The position numbers were made by a program, and so were the translations under genes. Below the pieces are notes generated by a model. It was given only the letters and a program-made list of their open reading frames with translations. It ran no database searches and was not told the origin of the DNA. Shown here piece by piece: positions 1,908 through 37,800 of a stretch of DNA of 64,000 nt; position 1 is the first letter of the stretch, and every line of letters begins with the position of its first letter. Source of the DNA: Schmidtea nova (taxonomy: Eukaryota); assembly GCA_044892505.1 (NCBI GenBank), contig CM097882.1, forward strand, positions 547,584,001 through 547,648,000, given 5' to 3'.

Positions 1908-2895
1908 TGTTGAGGATACCTAAATTCAAAATAATATAATAAATAAACAAAATTACTTGGGGGAAAATTGTCATGGGGAATGACACGATGGATTGGAGCC
2001 TGGGAAAGAAAACGGAAGTAAAAAGGAATGAGAAATGAGAAGGGGAAACAAAAGAAAAGAAATCAGACAAGCAAAACGAAATAGAGGTCAGCACTAATTA
2101 ACTAGTGCAAATAGGAAGAAATTCTAAAGTTGGGAAAAACAAAAACAACAACAAGAATTTTATCTTGACAACCGGTCAGAGATAATGTGGGCAAAAAGCA
2201 AACAAGCCGAAGCGGCAAAAAGGAGAAAAACAGAGATTATCTTGACAGCTGTCAAAGATAATTCCGTTGCTGAGAAAATGAATGGAAAATCATGTTGGAG
2301 AAATGTAACAACAGCTGATAATTTCAAGTGCTACAAAGTGAAGAAGTATAAAAGGAGGAAGCACCTAAAAACAAACACAACATTGTATACAGAAGTGGTT
2401 AGAGAAAATATTTGAGAGAAAGCGTTTGAGAAAATAAAGCTAGTAAAATTCATTAAAAAGGAAGCAGAAAAACGTCCAGAGAAAGTTAAAGAAGAGTCAA
2501 AAGGAGAATCCAATAATTGAAACCAGAAACTAAGGGATAAGCAGCAGGAGCTTATTCAAGCGTTTGAGAAAATAAAGCTAGTAAAATTCAGAGAGTAAAT
2601 CCAAGTCAAATAAAGAAAACAACCAGTCAAATTACCAATTGTTATACTCCCCAGCAGTGAGTGATTTCGAACATCGATTATACACTAGTGCTATTCTTCA
2701 CTATAGTGTCGTAATAAGCACTGTATAATCAGCTGTAGTTTGAATTTGGTCAGTTCATTGTAAATCGAAGTTATTTGTGATAATCAATAAAATTTCCTGT
2801 TGTCAGTTGTTATTGTGGGTCAATAAAGAGCACGTTTTGGAGTCAGGGTAATAATTTGTTAATTATAAAGTCACCAACGACCCAATAACCCAACA
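1908..2895 (+). repeat. LTR1 (988 bp; lacks the 60-bp 5' duplication present in the other LTRs)
   Basis: TGTTG...CAACA termini; followed by the PBS; AATAAA motifs at ~2786 and 2822. Confidence 0.93.
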
Positions 2896-2900
2896 TTATT

Positions 2901-2918
2901 TGGTGAGCCCGACGTGAT
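2901..2918 (+). promoter_or_regulatory. Primer-binding site, tRNA-Trp type (also 18760-18777 and 34612-34629)
   Basis: TGGTGAGCCCGACGTGAT differs at one position from the ASLV tRNA-Trp PBS TGGTGACCCCGACGTGAT; it lies 5 nt after the LTR end. Confidence 0.8.
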
Positions 2919-3177
2919 CAAACGTTGGTGAGGAGCGATTGAAAAAGTAATTGGGATATATCCGGCGAAATAAAGTGGTGAAGAATTATTGAAATAAAAT
3001 TTATTGAAGAGATAGTGAAAATAATTGTGAGGAAAAGAAAATACTAAACAAAATTGTGAAAAGGTAAATTATTAATTGTTGTAATAAATTTGAATTTAGA
3101 TTTTGCGAAACTTGAGAAAATAATTTATTAAAGTGAGTCGATATAATTTACGAAGCAAAAGTAAAAAGGAACCCATA

Positions 3178-4270
3178 ATGAGTAGTGAAGATTTGCCAGT
3201 ATCAGTTATTAAAGAAAATAATGATTTTGCAAGTTGTCAAAGATTACCTGTGGAACAATATGGAGGAGATCCGGTTATTTTTGTAGATTTTATGAGTGAT
3301 TACTACATGTATGCAACGGCGTACGGATGGTCTCAAGCGATTATGATTCAGAGATTACCTTTATATCTTAAAGGAGCAGCTAGAGAGGTTTGGCAACAGA
3401 TTGATAAAAAATTAATTGGTAATGATTGGGCAAAGTTGAAAGATGCGTTAGCTGCAAAACTTATCGGAGGAGATATCAAAAGATTAATGCGTCAAAAGTT
3501 TTATAGTAGAGTTCAAAATCCAAATGAAACAGTGAGCGAATTTGCGTATCATTTGTCAACCCTCGCAAGTAAATCATTTGAAGAAGACTCAAAACAACCA
3601 GGCCTAGCCCAACAAATGCAAGAATTAATCCAAGACCAATTTTTGTCAGGAATAAACAAAGAAATAAAAACCGCATTATGCTGTGTAGATTATGATAATT
3701 TTGATGAACTAGTAAAAAAGGCAATGAAAATCGAATTGAATTTGAAGAGCACCAAAAACAAATCTGATGTGTTCGCGATTATTCCAGCTCAAAGGGAAAG
3801 ATCAATTACACCAACCCAAAACAATTGGGAGCCAGAAAATAGATTCCAGCGATCAAAAAGTCCATCACCCAAATGGAGAACCGAGTTAAATATAAATAGA
3901 CCAAGCCGTAATTTCCAAGGCGCTGAGAGATCCAGAGTGATCCAGTGTGAAAATTGCAAGAAGATTGGCCATTATGCAAACCAGTGTTGGTTCAAAAATA
4001 ATTCCGATAGTACACCCAGAAGAATAACCCAAGATTATCGTACAAACGATAGGGGAACCAATTTTCGGAGAACAGTTCCTGATATAAAATCCAATGTTAA
4101 TGAAGTGCAATGTTATCGCTGCGGTAGAAAAGGACATGTTTCCAGAAATTGTTTTTCAAGATCAAGATCACCCTCAACTTCACCTTCACCACAGAGAGAC
4201 AATGTAAATTTGAACGGACAAATTCAATGCCATTTGTGTAGAAATTATGGACATATTGCAAGATCCTGTC
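3178..4270 (+). other. gag: Gag: retrotransposon capsid-like domain plus three CCHC zinc knuckles
   Basis: RLPLYLKGAAREVW and QNPNETVSEFAYHL-type capsid motifs; CX2CX4HX4C at 3946-3987, 4111-4152 and 4228-4269. Confidence 0.9.
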
Positions 4271-7200
4271 CAAGAAATACGAATAAATTTCAAAGGCCAA
4301 TATTAAAGCGAACAATAAGATTTCAAGATGAAAATCCATCGAATGATAATATAGCCTATGTTCAGCAAGATGGTTTTAGAGAAAAGATCGAAAGCGATGT
4401 TAAACAATTGAACCAAAAACTGAATAAATTGATAGCCAAATTTGAATCGGATGAAGAAACAGATACCCACATGATGACGAGGAAAGAGTTGAGCGAAAGC
4501 GAGTCAGAATCAGATAAAGTACAAATCAATAAAGCTAAAGCCGACATACAAAGTGAAAGGAGCACTGTATTTATTGCCAAAATCAGAAAGTTAGTTGCGG
4601 AACCAGACGTAAATTCCCAGAAAATAACAGAATTATTTACGAGGCTAACTAAAATACCTTTAAGTCTGACAAAAATTAAAACTGTTATTAAACTTTGTGC
4701 AGAATGTTATGCAGCAAGTGTGGAAAAACGAGATGTATTCAAAGATTTTATGAGAATATTTGGGCAATATCTACGGAAAAATAAATGGTTAGATCCTATA
4801 TTTATCCAAATGAATGCTCCAGATGGTACAAAATCCAACTATAAAATCGATGCATACGAGAAAGTACGCGAGCTAAAAAGAGAAGTAATGCACAAGTGTG
4901 AAAGTTGGGCGGTGGAACTCAAATTTATGGATCAAGTATTAGAGGATGGCGAATTCTTGGTAGATTATGGATTAATTCCTGGCGGTGAAAATGAAATGCA
5001 AATGACGAATATGATCGCCAAGGAAAAAACAGTAACAAATGACTCTGACGAAATCAGATTTGAACTAATGGAAGCATTGCTTAAAGGAAACACAGGTGAC
5101 ATTATTGATAAATTAAACAATATTTTGAATTTAGAACTCAAAGTAGAAGACAAGTTAAAAATTCTAGACTGTGTTAGACCCTATATGAATGCGGAAAACG
5201 AATATGGTAAAACAATAAAAACTCTTATTCAAAAATTTGGTCAAGAATTCAGGGAAGAAGGGATTTATAATGAGCCATTCGTAGTACTGTTAAAAATAAA
5301 TGGTCAAGGAGTAGAATATACGGATGAACATTGGTATACGAAAGTGAATAAAATTCGTCGAAGAACAGCAGAAATCATGGGCAATGATGGAATAATTGTG
5401 CTAACGTATAAAGGTTTTGAGCTAGACGATGATGAATACTTATTTGATTGTGGATGTATGCCACGAAAGCGTAACGAAGATAGATTTCTTACGGATCAAA
5501 ATTTTATTAATGATATAATTGCAGTGAAACAAGTGGATACAGATGAAGTAGAAAAAGGTTATAAAATTGAATTACCAGAGTTCGGCAGTGAAACAATGGA
5601 TAATGAGGATGAAATATCAGAGGAACAAGAAATGACAGAACATGGAGAGGAACAGGAAACTGAGCAGAGAATTGAGGAAAGTATAATAAAAACGGAAGTT
5701 AAAAATGAAGCGTATATGACAGAAATGGAGATTGATAATATTACGGAGGAAAGACAACGCAAAGATTTATACGAGGTGAGATGTGAAATAATACAGAGAC
5801 TCCAAGGTGAGAGAGGTCAGAAGGAATTAAAAGAGACTGAAAAGGTTGTACGTGCGCTGGCAAATGAATTATATGGCGAAGCAGCAGAGAAAACACAAGT
5901 AGAATTATATGTGAGAAAAATTGCAAAAAAGTTGAAAAAGAGACTTTATGTGGTCTTGAGATATGTAAAAGACAACAAGGAATTCTGTGATGATGGAGTG
6001 ATAACCAATATGATGACAGGAGAAATGGATAGAGATTTAGTATTGACAATTACGAGTTATATTTTGTTAGAAATCGGGACACACGATTATTTAAATATGG
6101 AAAAACGAGATGAAGTAATCAAAAAGGCGAGCAAAGTATTGTATAAGCATGTGGGCAAATGGATAAAGGAAATTGGAGGCTGGGAGAAATTAGTTAAACA
6201 AAAAACAGAATCATCAGTCGAAAAGAGAGAAAGTTACGAAGGAATACCGAGAGGTAAACCTATGAAACTTCCATTTATAATGTTTATGATCATAATATTA
6301 TGTGCGATTACGACGCAAACAACATCTTTAATTGCGTACGATTGTTCTCAAACCAAAATGGGAAAGATTTATTCCATGGTGGACATGACAGAATGTTCTG
6401 ATGCACACCCAATGAGTTTAACAGTTGAAAATGATGTAAAGTATCATGTATACCAAGAATCAGGCTTTAGACATGCGGTAGTAAGAGAGTGCATTGTAAA
6501 GAGAACGAGCTTTGTGTTTTATTGTGGCAAATGGAGTCACACATCACTAATTAAAATGTATTCAATCCCAAGGCCAGTTGATGTAAACCCAGAAAATTGC
6601 ATGGCTGCGTTTCAAACAGGGGAAGTGAAAATTAGCCCCGAGGTTAAATTGAAAGCTAAATTAAATCATGCTATACGAGAAACAATTATCGAAAAAGGAA
6701 CAATAAAGGCTAATGGGGATTGTAAAGGAGAACCGTACAAAATGAATGGAGAAATTATTGATCAAATTGTTGTGATGGAAGAGTATTTGACGGAATTGAG
6801 AGAATTCCAAGGAGCTTTTGATGACGACACAGGCAAGTTACAAACGCATCCATTCTGCAATATGAAGCAGGCTAGCTGTCAAACAGGAGAATCAATTTTG
6901 GTGTACGAAGTTAAGACAAATCTATGTAATTTAATACATTTGAAAACAATGAGTTTTAATGAAATGAGTGGAGAACAGTTGAGAGAAAGACCGGAAAATT
7001 TGAATGTGGAGGCAAAACCGGACATGACAATCAGAATTACCCCATTGAGAACCAGAAAAACTCCAGTTGTTTTGATGTCAACTTTATTAGATGACGGTAT
7101 GAGATTTATTCGAAAAAATGTGGTAAATAAATGTGGTCAAACGGTGTATGAGACCAATTATAAAGGAATTTATGTATCCAAGAAAAGAGTCGAGGAAGCT

Positions 7201-10200
7201 CAAGTCCAAATACATAGTACGGATATCAAATTGACAAATTATTTTAATAACAAAATAGACTATTTGTTCCACTACAGTCAAAGTATTATGGAAAATATTT
7301 ATAGAGAAATGATATTAAACGATTGTAAGTTGAATAAAGAAATACTACGGAACAGAATGGCGATGGCAGTCACAAATCCAAACTTGGTAGCACCTATGTT
7401 AATATCAGAAAACGGTGTGTTTGCAAGAGTATTTGGAGAAGCATTGTATAGCTATAAATGCAACGAGATTCCCGTGCAAATTATAAAGTACGAGCAATGT
7501 ACCAATGAATTGCCAGTAAGTGTTAATGGTAAATTGAGATTCATGGAGCCAATAACTCGAATATTGTTGGAAGAAGACGCGAAACCTAAACTTTTAAAAT
7601 GTAACCGATTGCTCGCACCATTATATCGACTAACATCAGATTCGTGGATATCATTACCAGATCATAAAGGAGTAAGAAATCCAGAAAAATTAGAATTAAC
7701 AAAACTTGAATATTTAATAAATTTTACATCATTGGACAAATTAGCACAAACTGGGTTGTATTCTCAAGAAGATGTTGAAGAAGCCCGAAGAAATCTACTA
7801 TTTCCATCAAAGAAAGAACGAGTCATTACTGAAATGATTGATACTATATTACCAAGTGGTGAAGGCAAAGTAAATTATGATTATTTACTAACACCAGATC
7901 ATTATAAGAAAGCAACGTACAATACGATGAAAAAGATATGGGGGAAATTCATGTTTTTGGGACAAGCATGTGCAGGATTAATTGGAATTTATGTTATGTT
8001 CGTGGTGATTAAAGTGATAATATCTCAAATACTAACTACTCATCAGCTATATGTTATTTCGGGATGGTCCTGGAAACTGATTATCGGATGTATTCCATTT
8101 CTGGCAAGATTTGTAATTACAAAGCATCAATATAAAGAGATGGGGAAAGTCAAGTCACGACTAAATAATGACGGAAGAGACATTGATTCGAGTTCGGACA
8201 GCGAGAGTGGGAATGGGGGTAAAGTAAAAGTACCTCCAATATATTATTATAAAAACAGTAAAATTAAAATTAATGATATACGAGAAAAATCTAAATCTTT
8301 GAATTTATTACAATCGGTACCACAAACAAGTGAAACAGACACATTCAGTCGATTATGCATTCCAAAAACTTTTCTACCAACAGCACCAATATATCCAGTA
8401 GAGAAGTTAAAAGAAATGAGACCAGTTGAAAACATTGAATTGACAAATGAGCAAATCGCACCAACTAGTGCGGAAATTGAAAGGAGAAACATGCTGGGAT
8501 TACCAGGAAATTATGCATTAATGACAATTGGAAACAAAGGAAGACAGCCAAGAATATGGATACAAGTGAATAAACATAGAGTCGAAGCATTAATAGATTC
8601 AGGCTCAAGCAATACAATATTATCAGATAAATTAATCAATTCAGGGGAAAGAGCACGAATGAAAAGCACAGAAGAAGTTGTACGATCAATGACGAAAAAT
8701 AAATTAAATATCATTGGACAGATCAGAGTAAAACTCAATATTGGAAATAAAGAAATTGTTCATAATGCGCTAATAATGAAAGATAGCCCAGTAATGTGTT
8801 TGGTAGAGATGGATGTGTTGGAGCAATTGGAAGGAGTCTCTCTTGATTTGAAAACCGGAAATCTAATTGTAGGAAAAACAGGAAAAGTTATTCATGAAAC
8901 GGGAGATGTGTTTCTAAATCAAACGTTAAGAGTACCACCTCAGAGTGAAGTTATTTGTTATGTGAATACAATGGGAGTTCCAGACGATGAATTTATATTT
9001 CAACCAAGTGAGAATTTAATTGCCAAATATGATACTCCAATATGCGACGAAGTAGTGAAAGTTCAAGATCAATTAATTCCTGTTCGCATCACTAACAATA
9101 GCGACAAAGAAGTGTCATTTAAACCAAAAACGAAATTAGGAAAGCTAACAAAAATCCTAAAAATCAATAATAAAAGATTACCAAAAAATATTAAAATATA
9201 CAAAGAACCCCAAGTTGACAGTGCAGAGTTGACGCAAGAGCAAACACAAACATTTACAAAATTGTTGAGAAAATATCAAGATATTTTTGCGAAACATGAG
9301 TATGATTTGGGAGTAACTCATATAATTGAACATGAAATTCCATTAATTGATGAAACTCCAATTAAATTACGACCATACAGAATTCCGTATGCGCATCAAG
9401 ACGAAAGCGATAGACAAATAAAGGCTATGAAAGAATTCCATATTATTAGAGACAGTTTTTCACCATTTTCTTCCTCTATTGTTGTAGTCAAAAAGAAAGA
9501 CGGTGAACTGAGATTTTGTATTGACTATCGAAAACTGAATCAAGTGACAAGAAAGGATACGTATCCCATTCCGGTTCCTCAGGAAATGTTTGACAAAATG
9601 GGAGAAGCTCAATATTTTACTGTTATTGATTTAAACAAAGGCTACAATCAATTCAAAGTTAAAGAGACAGATAAAGGGAAAACAGCGTTTTCAGATGGAA
9701 AAGGTTTGTATGAATTTAATGTTTTACCATTTGGTTTAACAGGTGCACCAGCGACATTTCAAAGAGGAATGAATTTTGTGCTGCGAGACATTCCACACGC
9801 CTTGGTATATATTGATGATATTATAATCTTCTCAGGTAATTTCGAAGAGCACATGAGAGATGTGGAAACAGTATTTAAACGGCTCAGAGAAGCAAATCTC
9901 AAAATTAAACCATCAAAATGTGAATGGGGAAAGTCAGAGGTAGTGTATGTTGGACATATTATTTCACGAAAAGGTCTACAACCAAATCCAGAAAATGTTA
10001 AGAAAATTAAAGATTATCCAACTCCAAAAAATGTTGATGATATTAGACAATTTCTCGGGTTAGCAAGCTATTATAGAAAATTTATTAGAAACTTTGCACA
10101 TGTTGCTCAACCATTAACGATGCTATTAAAGAAAACCACAAAATTCGTGTGGGGCAAAGCTCAGCAGGATATTTTCGAAATACTCAAACAAAAGTTAATG

Positions 10201-12822
10201 ATGAATCCAATATTACGATGTCCTGATTTCACAAAGACATTTATGTTAATGACGGACGCAAGCGGTTTTGCGTTGGGAGCGGTATTAGGACAAAAGGTTG
10301 AAGGAGAAAAAGATCATGTAATCGCATATGCTAGTCGATCATTGAAACCACATGAAAAAAACTATTCAACAATCGAAAAAGAAACTCTTGCTCTAGTATA
10401 TGGCATAACAACATTTCGACAGTACTTAGTTGGCCGAAAATTCATTGTCTATACAGACCATAATCCATTACAATGGTTAATGAAGCATCGAGATGCAGCA
10501 AGTAAATTAATTAGGTGGTCGTTAGCCTTGCAAGAATATGACTTTGAAATCAAATATCGAACAGGAAAATCAAATGCTAATGCTGATACCTTGTCTAGAA
10601 TTCCAAATGAGGAAATTAATAATAACCAGGAAGAAATAAATTTAAGAGATACTGTATTTGCAGTAGTTAAAGCAGCAAATAATATGGCAGAGCTACAGAG
10701 AGATCAAGAAATGGATGAGGAGCTGAAACAAATAATAAAACATACAGTAATAATGAAAAAAGATAAAGAATTGAAACAATTAATCGAGGAAAAACATAAA
10801 TATGTTATTCACAGAGGTATATTAAAATATATTAAAAATGATGAATTGTTAATAGTGGTTCCAATAATACATCGAAATACGTTATTATTACAGTACCATG
10901 ACGGGGCATTGGGAGGACATTTGTCAGCAAGAAAAACACTGTCGCGAATAAAACTAAAATATTTCTGGAATACAATGGAGCAGGATGTAAAGCAATGGTG
11001 CAACACTTGCAAAATATGCCTGACTCGAAGAAATACTGGAAAGAAAATAAAGGTTCCTCTAAACCCAATGCCAATACCAGCAGCGCCAATGGAATTTTCA
11101 GCAATGGATATCATCGGGCCTTTACCCGAGACAACGAATGGAAATAAATACATTTTGGTATTCTGTGATTATTTAACCAAATGGCCAGAAGCGTTTGCTA
11201 TGCCAAACCAAAAGGCAGAAACTGTTGCACAAATATTTGTTGAAGAAATCATATTTAGATATGGAGTTCCAAAGAAATTGCTAACAGATCAAGGGACAAA
11301 CTTTCAGAGTGATCTGTTTAAATCTATTACAGAATTATTTGGTATATATAAATTGAGCACATCACCATATCATCCACAAACAGATGGGTTAGTGGAAAGA
11401 TTTAATGGTACATTAATTAATATGATCTCATCCTATGTGAATCGAAAGCAAAAAGACTGGGATCTGTTCATTAGACCATGCTTATATGCCTATCGAAATT
11501 CAGTAAATGAGAGTACGGGAGAAACGCCCTTTTATCTTATGTACCTAAGACGAAATAATATGCCGATCGATTTAGAGTTCCAATCACCAACTTCCCAATA
11601 TTTAGAGATTCCAAATTATAAAGTTGCTCTGCAAGAACGTTTACAATCCGCTTGGACTCAAGCCGGATTAAAAATAAAATATCGACAGGAGCAATATAAA
11701 GAAAGTTACGATAAAAAAGCGCATGCGCACGGAATGAAAATTGGCGACCTAGTGTATCTAAATAAGCCAGAGCCAACAAAGGGACTCTCAACAAAATTAC
11801 AAAGACCATTCAAAGGTCCGTATACAGTCTGTGATGCGACTGCAACAAATCTAAAATTGCGACCAATTAATAACAAAAAAGCAGAAACAATTGTAGTTCA
11901 TGCCAATAGATGTAAGAAAGTGCCTGAACTGGAACATCAGCTACGAAATAAACAAAAGAAAACAAATGATGAAATAGAAATCCGGCAAAAGTTCCAGAAA
12001 AATCCAACTCCATTGAGTTATATGAATAAAGTTTTATTCATAACGACAGTTTTAATAAATATGGTAACGAACACAGTTGGAATAAAAATGGATATACCAG
12101 ATGCGGTCAATAAATTACCATCTTTAGAGAAAATAGACGTATACTTAACGAAAGTAGTTCTCACTCTTAATCTGTCAATGAACAATTACAAAAAACCACT
12201 TCGTAATAAAGGAATTTATACAAACAATCAATTGTTTGAAAGAAATGTTCAAATTGAGATGATATACTGGAATAAAACGAATCAAGTTCAAATTGAAAAT
12301 TGTGATACTACAATAATTGTTGCATATAAAGCTCAGGTCGAGGGAAAAGTAACTATTATTATAAATAATAAAATTAAGGTGGTATTGAATGAACACCGAA
12401 ACAGAGCGAGAGTCAGTACTCAGAACTCAGGAACCGAATCACAAACAAGCAAACTCCTTATAGAAAACCAATGCTGCAAAGGGAAAACCAATCCAGACCG
12501 ATGGCAAACTATTTGCATTAAAGACAGACAGATTTATTTCGTTCTCGATCAACCCTCTAAAGAAACCCTTGATCACAATCTGACTCTACCATTAACTCTT
12601 TCATGTATAAAAATCGAAAACTTTTCATTAAACTATAAAGAAAATTCATTCACTAACAATTGTGTTGATATGTTCTCTGTATGTATCATAAGGGCAAGAC
12701 AAAGAGTGATCTTGCTCGTTTGCTTTATCCTCATTTCACGAACTGACAAAAGAAACAATTCTAATTGTGATTTTCAATATTCTGAGCCGCAGATATCAAT
12801 GTGGTTGGAATCAAGGGTGTAG
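3178..12822 (+). CDS. Copy 1 uninterrupted polyprotein (3214 aa from first ATG): Gag-2xUBL-Bcl2-like-Env-PR-RT-RH-IN-C-terminal extension
   Basis: Single open frame 3133-12822 containing CCHC knuckles, LIDSGS, YIDD, TDAS, HHCC/DDE and GPY motifs. Confidence 0.93.
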   Translation: MSSEDLPVSVIKENNDFASCQRLPVEQYGGDPVIFVDFMSDYYMYATAYGWSQAIMIQRLPLYLKGAAREVWQQIDKKLIGNDWAKLKDALAAKLIGGDIKRLMRQKFYSRVQNPNETVSEFAYHLSTLASKSFEEDSKQPGLAQQMQELIQDQFLSGINKEIKTALCCVDYDNFDELVKKAMKIELNLKSTKNKSDVFAIIPAQRERSITPTQNNWEPENRFQRSKSPSPKWRTELNINRPSRNFQGAERSRVIQCENCKKIGHYANQCWFKNNSDSTPRRITQDYRTNDRGTNFRRTVPDIKSNVNEVQCYRCGRKGHVSRNCFSRSRSPSTSPSPQRDNVNLNGQIQCHLCRNYGHIARSCPRNTNKFQRPILKRTIRFQDENPSNDNIAYVQQDGFREKIESDVKQLNQKLNKLIAKFESDEETDTHMMTRKELSESESESDKVQINKAKADIQSERSTVFIAKIRKLVAEPDVNSQKITELFTRLTKIPLSLTKIKTVIKLCAECYAASVEKRDVFKDFMRIFGQYLRKNKWLDPIFIQMNAPDGTKSNYKIDAYEKVRELKREVMHKCESWAVELKFMDQVLEDGEFLVDYGLIPGGENEMQMTNMIAKEKTVTNDSDEIRFELMEALLKGNTGDIIDKLNNILNLELKVEDKLKILDCVRPYMNAENEYGKTIKTLIQKFGQEFREEGIYNEPFVVLLKINGQGVEYTDEHWYTKVNKIRRRTAEIMGNDGIIVLTYKGFELDDDEYLFDCGCMPRKRNEDRFLTDQNFINDIIAVKQVDTDEVEKGYKIELPEFGSETMDNEDEISEEQEMTEHGEEQETEQRIEESIIKTEVKNEAYMTEMEIDNITEERQRKDLYEVRCEIIQRLQGERGQKELKETEKVVRALANELYGEAAEKTQVELYVRKIAKKLKKRLYVVLRYVKDNKEFCDDGVITNMMTGEMDRDLVLTITSYILLEIGTHDYLNMEKRDEVIKKASKVLYKHVGKWIKEIGGWEKLVKQKTESSVEKRESYEGIPRGKPMKLPFIMFMIIILCAITTQTTSLIAYDCSQTKMGKIYSMVDMTECSDAHPMSLTVENDVKYHVYQESGFRHAVVRECIVKRTSFVFYCGKWSHTSLIKMYSIPRPVDVNPENCMAAFQTGEVKISPEVKLKAKLNHAIRETIIEKGTIKANGDCKGEPYKMNGEIIDQIVVMEEYLTELREFQGAFDDDTGKLQTHPFCNMKQASCQTGESILVYEVKTNLCNLIHLKTMSFNEMSGEQLRERPENLNVEAKPDMTIRITPLRTRKTPVVLMSTLLDDGMRFIRKNVVNKCGQTVYETNYKGIYVSKKRVEEAQVQIHSTDIKLTNYFNNKIDYLFHYSQSIMENIYREMILNDCKLNKEILRNRMAMAVTNPNLVAPMLISENGVFARVFGEALYSYKCNEIPVQIIKYEQCTNELPVSVNGKLRFMEPITRILLEEDAKPKLLKCNRLLAPLYRLTSDSWISLPDHKGVRNPEKLELTKLEYLINFTSLDKLAQTGLYSQEDVEEARRNLLFPSKKERVITEMIDTILPSGEGKVNYDYLLTPDHYKKATYNTMKKIWGKFMFLGQACAGLIGIYVMFVVIKVIISQILTTHQLYVISGWSWKLIIGCIPFLARFVITKHQYKEMGKVKSRLNNDGRDIDSSSDSESGNGGKVKVPPIYYYKNSKIKINDIREKSKSLNLLQSVPQTSETDTFSRLCIPKTFLPTAPIYPVEKLKEMRPVENIELTNEQIAPTSAEIERRNMLGLPGNYALMTIGNKGRQPRIWIQVNKHRVEALIDSGSSNTILSDKLINSGERARMKSTEEVVRSMTKNKLNIIGQIRVKLNIGNKEIVHNALIMKDSPVMCLVEMDVLEQLEGVSLDLKTGNLIVGKTGKVIHETGDVFLNQTLRVPPQSEVICYVNTMGVPDDEFIFQPSENLIAKYDTPICDEVVKVQDQLIPVRITNNSDKEVSFKPKTKLGKLTKILKINNKRLPKNIKIYKEPQVDSAELTQEQTQTFTKLLRKYQDIFAKHEYDLGVTHIIEHEIPLIDETPIKLRPYRIPYAHQDESDRQIKAMKEFHIIRDSFSPFSSSIVVVKKKDGELRFCIDYRKLNQVTRKDTYPIPVPQEMFDKMGEAQYFTVIDLNKGYNQFKVKETDKGKTAFSDGKGLYEFNVLPFGLTGAPATFQRGMNFVLRDIPHALVYIDDIIIFSGNFEEHMRDVETVFKRLREANLKIKPSKCEWGKSEVVYVGHIISRKGLQPNPENVKKIKDYPTPKNVDDIRQFLGLASYYRKFIRNFAHVAQPLTMLLKKTTKFVWGKAQQDIFEILKQKLMMNPILRCPDFTKTFMLMTDASGFALGAVLGQKVEGEKDHVIAYASRSLKPHEKNYSTIEKETLALVYGITTFRQYLVGRKFIVYTDHNPLQWLMKHRDAASKLIRWSLALQEYDFEIKYRTGKSNANADTLSRIPNEEINNNQEEINLRDTVFAVVKAANNMAELQRDQEMDEELKQIIKHTVIMKKDKELKQLIEEKHKYVIHRGILKYIKNDELLIVVPIIHRNTLLLQYHDGALGGHLSARKTLSRIKLKYFWNTMEQDVKQWCNTCKICLTRRNTGKKIKVPLNPMPIPAAPMEFSAMDIIGPLPETTNGNKYILVFCDYLTKWPEAFAMPNQKAETVAQIFVEEIIFRYGVPKKLLTDQGTNFQSDLFKSITELFGIYKLSTSPYHPQTDGLVERFNGTLINMISSYVNRKQKDWDLFIRPCLYAYRNSVNESTGETPFYLMYLRRNNMPIDLEFQSPTSQYLEIPNYKVALQERLQSAWTQAGLKIKYRQEQYKESYDKKAHAHGMKIGDLVYLNKPEPTKGLSTKLQRPFKGPYTVCDATATNLKLRPINNKKAETIVVHANRCKKVPELEHQLRNKQKKTNDEIEIRQKFQKNPTPLSYMNKVLFITTVLINMVTNTVGIKMDIPDAVNKLPSLEKIDVYLTKVVLTLNLSMNNYKKPLRNKGIYTNNQLFERNVQIEMIYWNKTNQVQIENCDTTIIVAYKAQVEGKVTIIINNKIKVVLNEHRNRARVSTQNSGTESQTSKLLIENQCCKGKTNPDRWQTICIKDRQIYFVLDQPSKETLDHNLTLPLTLSCIKIENFSLNYKENSFTNNCVDMFSVCIIRARQRVILLVCFILISRTDKRNNSNCDFQYSEPQISMWLESRV
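4550..5463 (+). other. Two tandem modules, each a helical segment plus a ubiquitin-like domain (UBL1 ~4795-5004, UBL2 ~5275-5463)
   Basis: LKFMDQVLEDGEFLVDYGL and LTYKGFELDDDEYLFDCG align with ubiquitin LIFAGKQLEDGRTLSDYNI; both are preceded by an FGQ(Y/E)(L/F)R...P motif. Confidence 0.65.
5761..6200 (+). other. Bcl-2-like helical domain
   Basis: BH2-like LYKHVGKWIKEIGGWEKL (6139-6192) versus Bcl-2 LNRHLHTWIQDNGGWDAF; BH3-like VVRALANEL; divergent BH1-position segment GEMDRDLVLTITSY. Confidence 0.65.
6262..8130 (+). other. env: Envelope glycoprotein (chuvirus-G / gB-like class III fusogen type) embedded in the polyprotein
   Basis: Signal-like MKLPFIMFMIIILCAITTQTTS then LIAYDC; 14 ectodomain Cys; CGQTVYETNY, GEALYSYKC, CTNELPV, FMEPITRIL and CNRLLAPLY motifs; TM at 7948-8022 and a second hydrophobic GWSW segment at 8047-8118. 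Confidence 0.8.
8542..8875 (+). other. pro: Retropepsin aspartic protease
   Basis: ALIDSGSSNT (catalytic D at 8596). The C-terminal motif is LVEMD in copy 1 and LVGMD in copies 2 and 3. Confidence 0.88.
9260..10605 (+). other. pol: Reverse transcriptase and RNase H (Ty3/Gypsy type)
   Basis: LRFCIDYRKLN, IDLNKGYNQ, PFGLTGAPATFQR, YIDD (9808), TDASGFALGAVL, NYSTIEKETLA, YTDHNPL and NANADTLSR. Confidence 0.95.
10800..11920 (+). other. int: Integrase (HHCC zinc finger, DDE core, GPY/F module)
   Basis: HDGALGGH...CNTC; D 11107, D 11287, E 11395; PFKGPY at ~11806-11823. Confidence 0.95.
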
Positions 12823-13035: not shown

Positions 13036-13099
13036 ACTTGGAAAATCTTTGGAAAAAAAAAAAAAAAAAAAAAAGATCAAAATTAAATCTAAAGGAAGA

Positions 13100-14320
13100 A
13101 TGGAAAAAATCAACAGACCAGCAAGATTATACGGGAAATATTATCAAGAAAGAAGAAGCTATACAGACAAAGTTATCGTAATAGAAGAAAATTTGAAAAT
13201 TCCTAATTGGGTAAGGTTAGGGAATGAAGAAATGAGAATATGTATGGTGGAATTGGAATGGAAATCCAATACGAAATTTTCAGAAGTGTTAATAAGAAGA
13301 AACGAAGAGACATGGGAGGTTCATGTTTTTAAAGGAAGAGTAGAAATTTTAGAGAATGATGCAACGGTTCTACAAACATTGGAAACTAATTCATCATGGA
13401 AGATATCAAAAGAAATATGGCATAAGAAGATGCGAGCAGCCAATGGAACGGCTTGCATTGTTTTAGAATGCCGAGGACCAGCTCCAACAATCCCGGCATT
13501 AGAACAAATTATGACCAATGAAGAAGAAAATAGGTTACTCCCGATAACCGAAGAAATGTTAAAGCACCGAAAATCATTTTTGAGAAAACAAATGACAAAA
13601 GAAGAAATTAGAAAAAATATTATGTTCATGGACGCGGAATATGGCGTAAGTGAGCAAAACAAGATGGTTCCGCTGTCTATTTGTTTAATAAACTATGACG
13701 GAAGAATATTGTATAACTCATTAATAACCCCCAGAGAAAAGCTAAAAAATTACGTTACCCAAATTCACGGCATCACAGAGAAGATGTCAAGAAATCAAGA
13801 TGATCAATACAAGAGTCAGAGGAAAATTCAGCAATTAACGGCAAGGAAAATCTTGATTGGACATGATCTCCAAAGCGAACTATTGTACAGTGGAGTACAG
13901 ACAAGGGATCTATGGGGTATTCGCGATTTGGCGGCAGCTCGAGCATTGACAAAAAGAAGAGTCACAAGGAACGGGCAATGGTATAAATTGTCAATAGTAG
14001 CCGAAGAAATATGTGGCATCAGAATGCAAAAAGGGAATCATACGGCATTAGAAGACACTGATGCAATTAGAAGAATTTATTTGGCCATAGAAAATGAATG
14101 GCAGGATGATGTAGAGTGTGCTGAAACAACCAGCAAAAGAAAATATTCGTTAGAAGAGTATAGGAAAAGAAAGGCTCCAACAACCAGTGAGCAGATGGAG
14201 GAACCAAAAGAGAAGAGGAAAGCAGAAGTTCAGCAAATGGAACAAGACATTCACATGGTGGAACACATGCATATTGCTCGTAAGAAAACTGCGAAAATGA
14301 TGGTTGAGAAAAAAACTTGA
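13100..14320 (+). CDS. ORF2 copy 1 (406 aa): cupin-like N-terminal domain plus DEDDh 3'-5' exonuclease (ISG20/REXO4-like)
   Basis: ExoI FMDAEYG (13631/13637), NYVTQIHGIT, ExoII LIGHDLQSEL, IRDLA, ExoIII HTALED (14039/14054); identical protein in all three copies. Confidence 0.85.
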   Translation: MEKINRPARLYGKYYQERRSYTDKVIVIEENLKIPNWVRLGNEEMRICMVELEWKSNTKFSEVLIRRNEETWEVHVFKGRVEILENDATVLQTLETNSSWKISKEIWHKKMRAANGTACIVLECRGPAPTIPALEQIMTNEEENRLLPITEEMLKHRKSFLRKQMTKEEIRKNIMFMDAEYGVSEQNKMVPLSICLINYDGRILYNSLITPREKLKNYVTQIHGITEKMSRNQDDQYKSQRKIQQLTARKILIGHDLQSELLYSGVQTRDLWGIRDLAAARALTKRRVTRNGQWYKLSIVAEEICGIRMQKGNHTALEDTDAIRRIYLAIENEWQDDVECAETTSKRKYSLEEYRKRKAPTTSEQMEEPKEKRKAEVQQMEQDIHMVEHMHIARKKTAKMMVEKKT

Positions 14321-17706: not shown

Positions 17707-18754
17707 TGTTGAGGATACCTAAATTCAAAATAATATAATAAATAAACAAAATTACTTAGGGGAATTACTTGAGGATACCTAAATTCAAAATAATATAATA
17801 AATAAACAAAATTACTTGGGGGAAAATTGTCATGGGGAATGACACGATGGATTGGAGCCTGGGAAAGAAAACGGAAGTAAAAAGGAATGAGAAATGAGAA
17901 GGGGAAACAAAAGAAAAGAAATCAGACAAGCAAAACGAAATAGAGGTCAGCACTAATTAACTAGTGCAAATAGGAAGAAATTCTAAAGTTGGGAAAAACA
18001 AAAACAACAACAAGAATTTTATCTTGACAACCGGTCAGAGATAATGTGGGCAAAAAGCAAACAAGCCGAAGCGGCAAAAAGGAGAAAAACAGAGATTATC
18101 TTGACAGCTGTCAAAGATAATTCCGTTGCTGAGAAAATGAATGGAAAATCATGTTGGAGAAATGTAACAACAGCTGATAATTTCAAGTGCTACAAAGTGA
18201 AGAAGTATAAAAGGAGGAAGCACCTAAAAACAAACATAACATTGTATACAGAAGTGGTTAGAGAAAATATTTGAGAGAAAGCGTTTGAGAAAATAAAGCT
18301 AGTAAAATTCATTAAAAAGGAAGCAGAAAAACGTCCAGAGAAAGTTAAAGAAGAGTCAAAAGGAGAATCCAATAATTGAAACCAGAAACTAAGGGATAAG
18401 CAGCAGGAGCTTATTCAAGCGTTTGAGAAAATAAAGCTAGTAAAATTCAGAGAGTAAATCCAAGTCAAATAAAGAAAACAACCAGTCAAATTACCAATTG
18501 TTATACTCCCCAGCAGTGAGTGATTTCGAACATCGATTATACACTAGTGCTATTCTTCACTATAGTGTCGTAATAAGCACTGTATAATCAGCTGTAGTTT
18601 GAATTTGGTCAGTTCATTGTAAATCGAAGTTATTTGTGATAATCAATAAAATTTCCTGTTGTCAGTTGTTATTGTGGGTCAATAAAGAGCACGTTTTGGA
18701 GTCAGGGTAATAATTTGTTAATTATAAAGTCACCAACGACCCAATAACCCAACA
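17707..18754 (+). repeat. LTR2 (1048 bp, shared by copies 1 and 2)
   Basis: PPT upstream and PBS downstream; 60-bp duplication at the 5' end; private C>T at 18237. Confidence 0.93.
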
Positions 18755-19036: not shown

Positions 19037-22000
19037 ATGAGTAGTGAAGATTTGCCAGTATCAGTTATTAAAGAAAATAATGATTTTGCAAGTTGTCAAA
19101 GATTACCTGTGGAACAATATGGAGGAGATCCGGTTATTTTTGTAGATTTTATGAGTGATTACTACATGTATGCAACGGCGTACGGATGGTCTCAAGCGAT
19201 TATGATTCAGAGATTACCTTTATATCTTAAAGGAGCAGCTAGAGAGGTTTGGCAACAGATTGATAAAAAATTAATTGGTAATGATTGGGCAAAGTTGAAA
19301 GATGCGTTAGCTGCAAAACTTATCGGAGGAGATATCAAAAGATTAATGCGTCAAAAGTTTTATAGTAGAGTTCAAAATCCAAATGAAACAGTGAGCGAAT
19401 TTGCGTATCATTTGTCAACCCTCGCAAGTAAATCATTTGAAGAAGACTCAAAACAACCAGGCCTAGCCCAACAAATGCAAGAATTAATCCAAGACCAATT
19501 TTTGTCAGGAATAAACAAAGAAATAAAAACCGCATTATGCTGTGTAGATTATGATAATTTTGATGAACTAGTAAAAAAGGCAATGAAAATCGAATTGAAT
19601 TTGAAGAGCACCAAAAACAAATCTGATGTGTTCGCGATTATTCCAGCTCAAAGGGAAAGATCAATTACACCAACCCAAAACAATTGGGAGCCAGAAAATA
19701 GATTCCAGCGATCAAAAAGTCCATCACCCAAATGGAGAACCGAGTTAAATATAAATAGACCAAGCCGTAATTTCCAAGGCGCTGAGAGATCCAGAGTGAT
19801 CCAGTGTGAAAATTGCAAGAAGATTGGCCATTATGCAAACCAGTGTTGGTTCAAAAATAATTCCGATAGTACACCCAGAAGAATAACCCAAGATTATCGT
19901 ACAAACGATAGGGGAACCAATTTTCGGAGAACAGTTCCTGATATAAAATCCAATGTTAATGAAGTGCAATGTTATCGCTGCGGTAGAAAAGGACATGTTT
20001 CCAGAAATTGTTTTTCAAGATCAAGATCACCCTCAACTTCACCTTCACCACAGAGAGACAATGTAAATTTGAACGGACAAATTCAATGCCATTTGTGTAG
20101 AAATTATGGACATATTGCAAGATCCTGTCCAAGAAATACGAATAAATTTCAAAGGCCAATATTAAAGCGAACAATAAGATTTCAAGATGAAAATCCATCG
20201 AATGATAATATAGCCTATGTTCAGCAAGATGGTTTTAGAGAAAAGATCGAAAGCGATGTTAAACAATTGAACCAAAAACTGAATAAATTGATAGCCAAAT
20301 TTGAATCGGATGAAGAAACAGATACCCACATGATGACGAGGAAAGAGTTGAGCGAAAGCGAGTCAGAATCAGATAAAGTACAAATCAATAAAGCTAAAGC
20401 CGACATACAAAGTGAAAGGAGCACTGTATTTATTGCCAAAATCAGAAAGTTAGTTGCGGAACCAGACGTAAATTCCCAGAAAATAACAGAATTATTTACG
20501 AGGCTAACTAAAATACCTTTAAGTCTGACAAAAATTAAAACTGTTATTAAACTTTGTGCAGAATGTTATGCAGCAAGTGTGGAAAAACGAGATGTATTCA
20601 AAGATTTTATGAGAATATTTGGGCAATATCTACGGAAAAATAAATGGTTAGATCCTATATTTATCCAAATGAATGCTCCAGATGGTACAAAATCCAACTA
20701 TAAAATCGATGCATACGAGAAAGTACGCGAGCTAAAAAGAGAAGTAATGCACAAGTGTGAAAGTTGGGCGGTGGAACTCAAATTTATGGATCAAGTATTA
20801 GAGGATGGCGAATTCTTGGTAGATTATGGATTAATTCCTGGCGGTGAAAATGAAATGCAAATGACGAATATGATCGCCAAGGAAAAAACAGTAACAAATG
20901 ACTCTGACGAAATCAGATTTGAACTAATGGAAGCATTGCTTAAAGGAAACACAGGTGACATTATTGATAAATTAAACAATATTTTGAATTTAGAACTCAA
21001 AGTAGAAGACAAGTTAAAAATTCTAGACTGTGTTAGACCCTATATGAATGCGGAAAACGAATATGGTAAAACAATAAAAACTCTTATTCAAAAATTTGGT
21101 CAAGAATTCAGGGAAGAAGGGATTTATAATGAGCCATTCGTAGTACTGTTAAAAATAAATGGTCAAGGAGTAGAATATACGGATGAACATTGGTATACGA
21201 AAGTGAATAAAATTCGTCGAAGAACAGCAGAAATCATGGGCAATGATGGAATAATTGTGCTAACGTATAAAGGTTTTGAGCTAGACGATGATGAATACTT
21301 ATTTGATTGTGGATGTATGCCACGAAAGCGTAACGAAGATAGATTTCTTACGGATCAAAATTTTATTAATGATATAATTGCAGTGAAACAAGTGGATACA
21401 GATGAAGTAGAAAAAGGTTATAAAATTGAATTACCAGAGTTCGGCAGTGAAACAATGGATAATGAGGATGAAATATCAGAGGAACAAGAAATGACAGAAC
21501 ATGGAGAGGAACAGGAAACTGAGCAGAGAATTGAGGAAAGTATAATAAAAACGGAAGTTAAAAATGAAGCGTATATGACAGAAATGGAGATTGATAATAT
21601 TACGGAGGAAAGACAACGCAAAGATTTATACGAGGTGAGATGTGAAATAATACAGAGACTCCAAGGTGAGAGAGGTCAGAAGGAATTAAAAGAGACTGAA
21701 AAGGTTGTACGTGCGCTGGCAAATGAATTATATGGCGAAGCAGCAGAGAAAACACAAGTAGAATTATATGTGAGAAAAATTGCAAAAAAGTTGAAAAAGA
21801 GACTTTATGTGGTCTTGAGATATGTAAAAGACAACAAGGAATTCTGTGATGATGGAGTGATAACCAATATGATGACAGGAGAAATGGATAGAGATTTAGT
21901 ATTGACAATTACGAGTTATATTTTGTTAGAAATCGGGACACACGATTATTTAAATATGGAAAAACGAGATGAAGTAATCAAAAAGGCGAGCAAAGTATTG

Positions 22001-34888: not shown

Positions 34889-37800
34889 ATGAGTAGTGAA
34901 GATTTGCCAGTATCAGTTATTAAAGAAAATAATGATTTTGCAAGTTGTCAAAAATTACCTGTGGAACAATATGGAGGAGATCCGGTTATTTTTGTAGATT
35001 TTATGAGTGATTACTACATGTATGCAACGGCGTACGGATGGTCTCAAGCGATTATGATTCAGTGATTACCTTTATATCTTAAAGGAGCAGCTAGAGAGGT
35101 TTGGCAACAGATTGATAAAAAATTAATTGGTAATGATTGGGCAAAGTTGAAAGATGCGTTAGCTGCAAAACTTATCGGAGGAGATATCAAAAAATTAATG
35201 CGTCAAAAGTTTTATAGTAGAGTTCAAAATCCAAATGAAACAGTGAGCGAATTTGCGTATCATTTGTCAACCCTCGCAAGTAAATCATTTGAAGAAGACT
35301 CAAAACAACCAGGCCTAGCCCAACAAATGCAAGAATTAATCCAAGACCAATTTTTGTCAGGAATAAACAAAGAAATAAAAACCGCATTATGCTGTGTAGA
35401 TTATGATAATTTTGATGAACTAGTAAAAAAGGCAATGAAAATCGAATTGAATTTGAAGAGCACCAAAAACAAATCTGATGTGTTCGCGATTATTCCAGCT
35501 CAAAGGGAAAGATCAATTACACCAACCCAAAACAATTGGGAGCCAGAAAATAGATTCCAGCGATCAAAAAGTCCATCACCCAAATGGAGAACCGAGTTAA
35601 ATATAAATAGACCAAGCCGTAATTTCCAAGGCGCTGAGAGATCCAGAGTGATCCAGTGTGAAAATTGCAAGAAGATTGGCCATTATGCAAACCAGTGTTG
35701 GTTCAAAAATAATTCCGATAGTACACCCAGAAGAATAACCCAAGATTATCGCACAAACGATAGGGGAACCAATTTTCGGAGAACAGTTCCTGATATAAAA
35801 TCCAATGTTAATGAAGTGCAATGTTATCGCTGCGGTAGAAAAGGACATGTTTCCAGAAATTGTTTTTCAAGATCAAGATCACCCTCAACTTCACCTTCAC
35901 CACAGAGAGACAATGTAAATTTGAACGGACAAATTCAATGCCATTTGTGTAGAAATTATGGACATATTGCAAGATCCTGTCCAAGAAATACGAATAAATT
36001 TCAAAGGCCAATATTAAAGCGAACAATAAGATTTCAAGATGAAAATCCATCGAATGATAATATAGCCTATGTTCAGCAAGATGGTTTTAGAGAAAAGATC
36101 GAAAGCGATGTTAAACAATTGAACCAAAAACTGAATAAATTGATAGCCAAATTTGAATCGGATGAAGAAACAGATACCCACATGATGACGAGGAAAGAGT
36201 TGAGCGAAAGCGAGTCAGAATCAGATAAAGTACAAATCAATAAAGCTAAAGCCGACATACAAAGTGAAAGGAGCACTGTATTTATTGCCAAAATCAGAAA
36301 GTTAGTTGCGGAACCAGACGTAAATTCCCAGAAAATAACAGAATTATTTACGAGGCTAACTAAAATACCTTTAAGTCTGACAAAAATTAAAACTGTTATT
36401 AAACTTTGTGCAGAATGTTATGCAGCAAGTGTGGAAAAACGAGATGTATTCAAAGATTTTATGAGAATATTTGGGCAATATCTACGGAAAAATAAATGGT
36501 TAGATCCTATATTTATCCAAATGAATGCTCCAGATGGTACAAAATCCAACTATAAAATCGATGCATACGAGAAAGTACGCGAGCTAAAAAGAGAAGTAAT
36601 GCACAAGTGTGAAAGTTGGGCGGTGGAACTCAAATTTATGGATCAAGTATTAGAGGATGGCGAATTCTTGGTAGATTATGGATTAATTCCTGGCGGTGAA
36701 AATGAAATGCAAATGACGAATATGATCGCCAAGGAAAAAACAGTAACAAATGACTCTGACGAAATCAGATTTGAACTAATGGAAGCATTGCTTAAAGGAA
36801 ACACAGGTGACATTATTGATAAATTAAACAATATTTTGAATTTAGAACTCAAAGTAGAAGACAAGTTAAAAATTCTAGACTGTGTTAGACCCTATATGAA
36901 TGCGGAAAACGAATATGGTAAAACAATAAAAACTCTTATTCAAAAATTTGGTCAAGAATTCAGGGAAGAAGGGATTTATAATGAGCCATTCGTAGTACTG
37001 TTAAAAATAAATGGTCAAGGAGTAGAATATACGGATGAACATTGGTATACGAAAGTGAATAAAATTCGTCGAAGAACAGCAGAAATCATGGGCAATGATG
37101 GAATAATTGTGCTAACGTATAAAGGTTTTGAGCTAGACGATGATGAATACTTATTTGATTGTGGATGTATGCCACGAAAGCGTAACGAAGATAGATTTCT
37201 TACGGATCAAAATTTTATTAATGATATAATTGCAGTGAAACAAGTGGATACAGATGAAGTAGAAAAAGGTTATAAAATTGAATTACCAGAGTTCGGCAGT
37301 GAAACAATGGATAATGAGGATGAAATATCAGAGGAACAAGAAATGACAGAACATGGAGAGGAACAGGAAACTGAGCAGAGAATTGAGGAAAGTATAATAA
37401 AAACGGAAGTTAAAAATGAAGCGTATATGACAGAAATGGAGATTGATAATATTACGGAGGAAAGACAACGCAAAGATTTATACGAGGTGAGATGTGAAAT
37501 AATACAGAGACTCCAAGGTGAGAGAGGTCAGAAGGAATTAAAAGAGACTGAAAAGGTTGTACGTGCGCTGGCAAATGAATTATATGGCGAAGCAGCAGAG
37601 AAAACACAAGTAGAATTATATGTGAGAAAAATTGCAAAAAAGTTGAAAAAGAGACTTTATGTGGTCTTGAGATATGTAAAAGACAACAAGGAATTCTGTG
37701 ATGATGGAGTGATAACCAATATGATGACAGGAGAAATGGATAGAGATTTAGTATTGACAATTACGAGTTATATTTTGTTAGAAATCGGGACACACGATTA

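Follow-up and report, generated by a model that had tools for sequence, protein, structure and literature searches.

A tandemly duplicated module, predicted to be helical and ubiquitin-like, in the Gag-Env-Pol polyprotein encoded by a Burro-like LTR element from Schmidtea nova

Results

We describe a protein module encoded by a long terminal repeat (LTR) element in a 64,000-nucleotide stretch of the Schmidtea nova genome (contig CM097882.1, positions 547,584,001 to 547,648,000; hereafter the window). Within the Gag-Env-Pol polyprotein of this element, a 150-residue module is tandemly duplicated between the nucleocapsid and a Bcl-2-like domain. Each unit is predicted to join a helical domain, which probably resembles a TFIIS N-terminal domain (TND), to an integral ubiquitin-like (UBL) domain. 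We tentatively favour the view that the module pair works as a non-catalytic adaptor docking on host transcription or chromatin proteins.

All features lie on the forward strand, and the polyprotein is encoded by open reading frame 1 (ORF1) of the first element copy (3124-12822; 3232 codons). The four-helix domain of module 1 (4549..4782) was modelled with AlphaFold 2 (AF2) on an alignment and has a weak in-register match to host TND profiles; the beta-grasp UBL behind it (4798..5010), recognized by fold model and profile, has neither a C-terminal GG nor an I44 patch. The four-helix domain of module 2 (5044..5256), also probably TND-like, corresponds to helices at residues 169-239 of a single-sequence model and to matches with TND, LW, and integrase-binding domains (IBD), and its UBL (5284..5529), assigned by homology, is uncertain in its last strand and end. 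The two units are 25% identical over 129 aligned positions, with a Smith-Waterman score of 71 against a mean of 30 and a maximum of 53 in shuffled sequences (0 of 2000 shuffles scored as high). A sequence-only reading of this DNA had proposed two ubiquitin-like motifs with FGQ.(L/F)R junctions, spanning 4550..5463 and arising by an old internal duplication. These motifs and junctions are in frame in ORF1, downstream of three CCHC knuckles, and the alignment and shuffle test bear out the duplication; the feature is real, but its proposed end is too early, the last beta-strand of unit 2 lying within 5464-5530. That reading noted the modules but left the helical half, the downstream Bcl-2-like domain, and the published UBL of Burro elements unidentified.

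The AF2 model of module 1, built on a 30-row family alignment, predicts a beta-beta-alpha-beta-beta-(3-10)-beta fold for the UBL, four helices in the preceding domain (residues 2-18, 24-34, 41-57, and 62-79; pLDDT 88-96), and two halves packed in a fixed arrangement (pTM 0.85). The beta-grasp fold suggested earlier for both units is thereby predicted with high confidence in unit 1, while a UBL is assigned to unit 2 from its homology with unit 1 and with the family. Single-sequence AF2 of both units gave a pLDDT of 47.6 and no UBL, with values below 50 over the unit 2 UBL, and a Foldseek search with that model returned nothing at E ≤ 0.001. The family UBL profile matched ISG15 (E 1.4e-06), NEDD8, and ubiquitin in the PDB. 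The UBLs share 12-27% identity with the structures that they match, and taken singly their sequences fall below the Pfam cut-off (E 0.0014; 18.8 vs 25.4 bits). ESM Atlas placed unit 1 with ubiquitin-family clusters at 0.78-0.81, which is below lead strength, and gave no usable match for the helical half.

Models and profiles both bear on a likeness of the helical half to TNDs. TND, LW, and IBD domains occupy 10 of the top 50 VIA rows, aligned to the module 2 helical stretch, and the IBD of LEDGF is among these TND-type matches; the bundle of ~78 residues superposes on TNDs at 2.5-4.5 Å. Compared with host TNDs by hhalign, the helical profile gives a weak in-register match (P 0.002, probability 13-15%; P 0.012 for the whole module), which beats 34 helical control pieces (p 0.004, with rows that are not independent) but not reversed sequences (16/26). 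The helical profile found nothing under E 0.08 among PDB sequences, and no TND, and BLASTP of one relative, P0010, against a host TND was not significant. We regard the helical half as probably TND-like.

The module is widespread in this genome. A genome search with it gave at least 127 matches (125 of 1997 candidates were scored), 17 among those listed being stop-free in 3232-codon frames, and a further group at 39-41% identity. Four lineages carry two modules (A, B1, B2, and C), and single-module lineages D and E were found through a Bcl-2 search of the genome. The doubling is common to A-C and, judged from these sequences, therefore likely arose once, in their ancestor. Beyond this genome, word-indexed protein searches with the module found no relatives, but HMMER, run exhaustively over 1.84 billion representatives, found 88 matches, of which 14 span both module halves; most of the others are polyubiquitin-like proteins aligned to the UBL half. 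The 14 whole-module relatives include five with a Gag knuckle upstream, two with the same fusion glycoprotein downstream, and two with two modules (P0003 and P0010), and all ten that were looked up are unnamed singletons. P0019 has Gag, one module, and the fusion glycoprotein, then several protease-like domains in a row, with no reverse transcriptase (RT) in the predicted protein. In a giant element of this genome, several units at the equivalent place look like UBLs; they were not counted, as the A-E profile scored them at 5 bits or less.

Across lineage pairs, the ratio of nonsynonymous to synonymous change (dN/dS) lies at 0.10-0.53 in the four module domains; capsid and Env have 0.02-0.07, and the Bcl-2-like domain has 0.13-0.59. 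These are simple NG86 counts, and several lineage pairs are saturated. By this measure the module domains are retained yet evolve like an accessory domain. Short hydrophobic words near 4350 and 5512 flank the module pair, resemble those at other domain borders, and are conserved among A, B1, B2, and C. The spacer from the module to the Bcl-2-like domain or Env contains [RK]GRP in basic context in 7 of 16 lineages, against 0.05 expected from shuffles, in a count that takes lineages with at least 120 spacer residues, excludes three shorter fragments, and treats a spacer that cannot be aligned. We take this motif to be AT-hook-like.

The UBLs are integral and non-conjugatable, as the sequence-only reading had it. 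Conjugatable modifiers bear a di-glycine after the last strand; [LIV]R.GG is absent throughout ORF1, no tail GG occurs in the 12 of 14 whole-module relatives with a readable tail, and the GG at 4981 sits in the loop before the last strand, and lineages B1, B2, and C have GN or GD in its place. The hydrophobic L8/I44/V70 patch expected of a ubiquitin mimic aimed at ESCRT or proteasome receptors is likewise not kept in the aligned sequences. At the I44 column, unit 1 has Lys and unit 2 has Thr, and 3 of the 30 family rows have Ile; none of the 30 rows has Leu at L8, in a loop that aligns loosely; and the V70 column has Thr and Leu in the two units of the window.

The element is present three times head to tail (1910-50524), neighbours sharing single LTRs, with a repeat unit of 15.86 kb and more than 99.9% identity among the three full copies. 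The LTR of ~992 bp (1910..2901) recurs at 17769, 33621, and 49533. The module pairs of the second (20405..21403) and third (36257..37255) copies each show 0 mismatches in 999 positions against the first, and the ORF1 frames of these copies are broken farther downstream than the modules. Four sequence runs, made up of contigs whose kind is not recorded, give even coverage of the element and no notable splice-like joint over the modules.

Upstream of the modules, ORF1 encodes a capsid-like region and the three CCHC knuckles (3178..4270; Pfam knuckles at 3943, 4108, and 4225), and relatives match Retrotrans_gag. Downstream lies the Bcl-2-like domain (5755..6207), whose nine-relative profile matches Bcl-xL structures (best E 5.9e-08); a BH2-like WxxxxGGW is retained and the BH1 NWGR is degenerate. 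A hydrophobic stretch (6259..6327), by hydropathy a likely signal peptide of Env, would in that role likely also anchor the upstream part in the membrane; it adjoins the Bcl-2-like domain and could double as the membrane tail anchor of that domain. A Monjiviricetes-type fusion glycoprotein follows in frame between gag and pol (6328..8100; PF24664, E 5e-88), with a transmembrane stretch at 7948 by hydropathy. Behind it, a motif scan found a late-domain-like PTAP (8377..8388), reading PTAP(I/V)YP (8377-8400) and kept in lineages A, B1, and B2; the ORF piece of the giant element that was examined has no match, and the stretches read for C, D, and E do not include this region. Protease (PR), RT, RNase H (RH), and integrase (IN) occupy 8542..11559 by Pfam. 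The ~200 residues between PR and RT, the place of a dUTPase-like domain in Burro, have no Pfam match.

Around these domains, ~340 residues after the integrase (11800-12822) match no Pfam family clearly (DUF5018-related, E 0.014) but have a hydrophobic end, a second ORF downstream of pol (13037-14320) encodes a DEDDh/RNase T exonuclease (PF00929, E 2e-06) in all three copies, and an ORF fragment upstream of the first LTR (905-1843) resembles, by eye, the end of a Polinton-like family B DNA polymerase. Elsewhere in the genome, host TND genes are expanded: C1 216.19-216.25 Mb holds a tandem array of ~28 short TND-coding repeats (PF08711) ~1.2 kb apart, with more clusters at C1 28.8 Mb and C2 284 Mb. 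A different, high-copy element (L042:3176-9901 and L045:3202-5745) encodes near-canonical ubiquitin that ends in LRLRGG, is joined in frame to the start of a Gag-Pol resembling BEL/Pao, and is preceded by pieces that look by eye like calmodulin, HECT, and Hsp70. Of the 150 PF11976 matches listed, more than 100 have about equal scores and lie in long frames. Among the 150 BIR matches listed, most fall within a 399-codon frame that is repeated and that is likely an IAP-like accessory ORF belonging to a mobile element.

Discussion

We propose, as a tentative reading, that the module pair is an adaptor for host nuclear proteins. In the Gag-Env-Pol polyprotein of this Burro-like element, a four-helix bundle is predicted to pack on an integral UBL; through the bundle, which probably resembles TFIIS-N, the module would bind acidic motifs in host proteins that serve transcription or chromatin. 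The protease of the element could free the module pair at the hydrophobic sites near 4350 and 5512, and the freed module may enter the nucleus, relatives having an AT-hook-like motif just behind it. There it might tether the incoming element to chromatin or favour LTR transcription, and doubling may raise avidity or add a second partner. TNDs are defined as five-helix bundles (PMC9987994) and the high-confidence model has four helices, for which reason we file the helical half as TND-like and not as a TND member. The motif [RK]GRP is missing in A, B1, B2, C, E1, and E2, so that it supports the family and not this copy. With the module defined, its partner half likely TFIIS-N-like, and its ubiquitin patch lost, the point to ask is no longer about budding or degradation but which protein, of the host or of the element, it binds. 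Should the TND reading be right, a retroelement would bring along its own grip on the transcription machinery.

A narrower and unlikely version of this proposal, drawn by analogy, is that the element encodes its own LEDGF-like tether: a captured TFIIS-N-type domain with a UBL, and in many lineages an AT-hook, cut from Gag, that would bind integrase or host elongation factors and steer integration or transcription. The analogy is suggested because LEDGF pairs AT-hooks with an integrase-binding domain (bioRxiv 10.1101/2024.06.29.601340), a domain itself among the TND matches of the helical half. Were it true, this would be a mobile-element-encoded TND, the self-encoded counterpart of a host factor that HIV borrows; our literature searches found no mobile-element-encoded TND and no viral TND among the matches listed.

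Other roles have to be weighed against the adaptor. The ubiquitin-pathway decoy suggested by the sequence-only reading keeps a minor but real chance; in this form, the acidic DDDEY face of the rigid module would hold a cytoplasmic protein of the ubiquitin pathway or of cell death, and the module, with its Bcl-2-like neighbour, would help the host cell survive. The module is always upstream of the Bcl-2-like domain in eight lineages of this genome, its acidic face is conserved, and it evolves fast; apoptosis and ubiquitination domains abound in Burro cargo (PMC6431247), and the Burro1 RING-BIR region is reported, second-hand, to protect stem cells from apoptosis (PMC13465017). However, P0019 has module and Env with no GGW motif between them, and a decoy leaves the TND-like matches and AT-hook-like motifs unexplained. 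By the general rules of ubiquitin binding, loss of the I44 patch also makes the usual UIM-, UBA-, and PRU-type readers unlikely partners. A structural role, in which the module forms a matrix-like or spacer layer that links Gag, at its nucleocapsid end, with the membrane anchor before Env, would suit the predicted rigid packing, the hydrophobic anchor downstream, and the place that the module keeps among env-bearing relatives, directly behind the last knuckle and the coiled stretch that goes with it; we find it doubtful, as the module evolves several times faster than capsid and Env and varies in number from one to two or more, a poor fit to a lattice layer.

The remaining suggestions of the sequence-only reading, a built-in budding signal and a proteasome turnover signal, are weak because the L8/I44 patch is not kept. 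Integral UBLs on the Gag part of an envelope-coding element might replace Gag ubiquitination and recruit ESCRT, and Gag-fused ubiquitin can replace a late domain (PMC2958808) and ubiquitin present at the budding site suffices (PMC3751857). Yet budding by fused ubiquitin depends on L8 and I44 (PMC2958808), and A, B1, and B2 have an ordinary PTAP in the Env tail; we regard a late-domain role as highly unlikely. The natural, cleavable ubiquitin-Gag fusion of the BEL/Pao-looking element would fit the budding idea far better than the twin modules. A UBL might instead direct the polyprotein to the proteasome or, like pestivirus inserts, mark a site where host deubiquitinases cleave; this idea gains something from our fold searches, in which ubiquitin-bearing polyproteins of bovine viral diarrhoea virus (BVDV) topped the viral matches and the integral UBLs of Rad23, Dsk2, and midnolin were among the others. 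The ubiquitin insert has a processing role in the BVDV polyprotein, and pestivirus inserts have a cleavable GG. The modules have no such GG after the last strand, in the window units or in the 12 of 14 relatives with readable tails, and no proteasome-binding patch, and this role is very improbable.

Several known systems can be set beside the module. Our literature searches returned no paper on a captured ubiquitin-like domain in an LTR retrotransposon Gag-Pol (the Jurka 2007, Grohme 2018, and Lee 2026 supplements may bear on it) and nothing joining four of TFIIS, gypsy, Gag, planarian, and ubiquitin-like (Grohme 2018 or Jurka 2007 may already annotate the region). TND proteins (TFIIS, Elongin A, MED26, PNUTS, and LEDGF/HRP2), whose TNDs use two pockets and a basic patch to bind TND-interacting motifs, share with the helical half a helical bundle, weak profile similarity, and a basic last helix, whereas the module is about five residues shorter in the alpha3-alpha4 region, has Gly for the near-end Trp, and is UBL-fused and mobile-element-encoded. 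The lentiviral tether LEDGF/p75 (bioRxiv 10.1101/2024.06.29.601340) combines a TND-type domain and AT-hooks in one chain, as do the motif-bearing relatives; it is a host protein with a PWWP reader, whereas the module is element-encoded, lacks PWWP, and comes with a UBL, and this element itself has no AT-hook-like motif. Engineered Gag-ubiquitin fusions (PMC2958808) and pestivirus inserts also place a ubiquitin fold inside a viral polyprotein, but theirs is near-canonical ubiquitin with the L8/I44 patch that the module UBLs lack.

The closest system is that of the planarian Burro/GYPSM1 elements, in which a Ubi2/SUMO-like motif precedes BCL-2 and Env lies in frame between gag and pol (PMC6431247). 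Both have one ORF with Gag, three CCHC knuckles, a UBL, a BCL2-like domain, a mononegavirus-like Env, and PR-RT-RH-IN. The present element is smaller (15.9 kb with 1-kb LTRs and 3232 codons, vs >30 kb and ~4900 aa), has no BIR, MATH, or ankyrin match in ORF1 by Pfam, carries the DEDDh exonuclease ORF downstream, and has two UBLs, each with a helical partner that PMC6431247 does not describe. From the published description, we file it as a compact Burro-like relative, not as one of Burro1-4. Published work thus already has a UBL at this place in elements of this kind. To that we add the delimitation of the module and of its TND-like half, its distribution, its change from one copy to two, and the finding that the ubiquitin patch has been lost. 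The Burro ubiquitin/SUMO-like motif, an unexplained annotation since 2019, can here be defined as half of a conserved 150-residue module that is predicted to fold.
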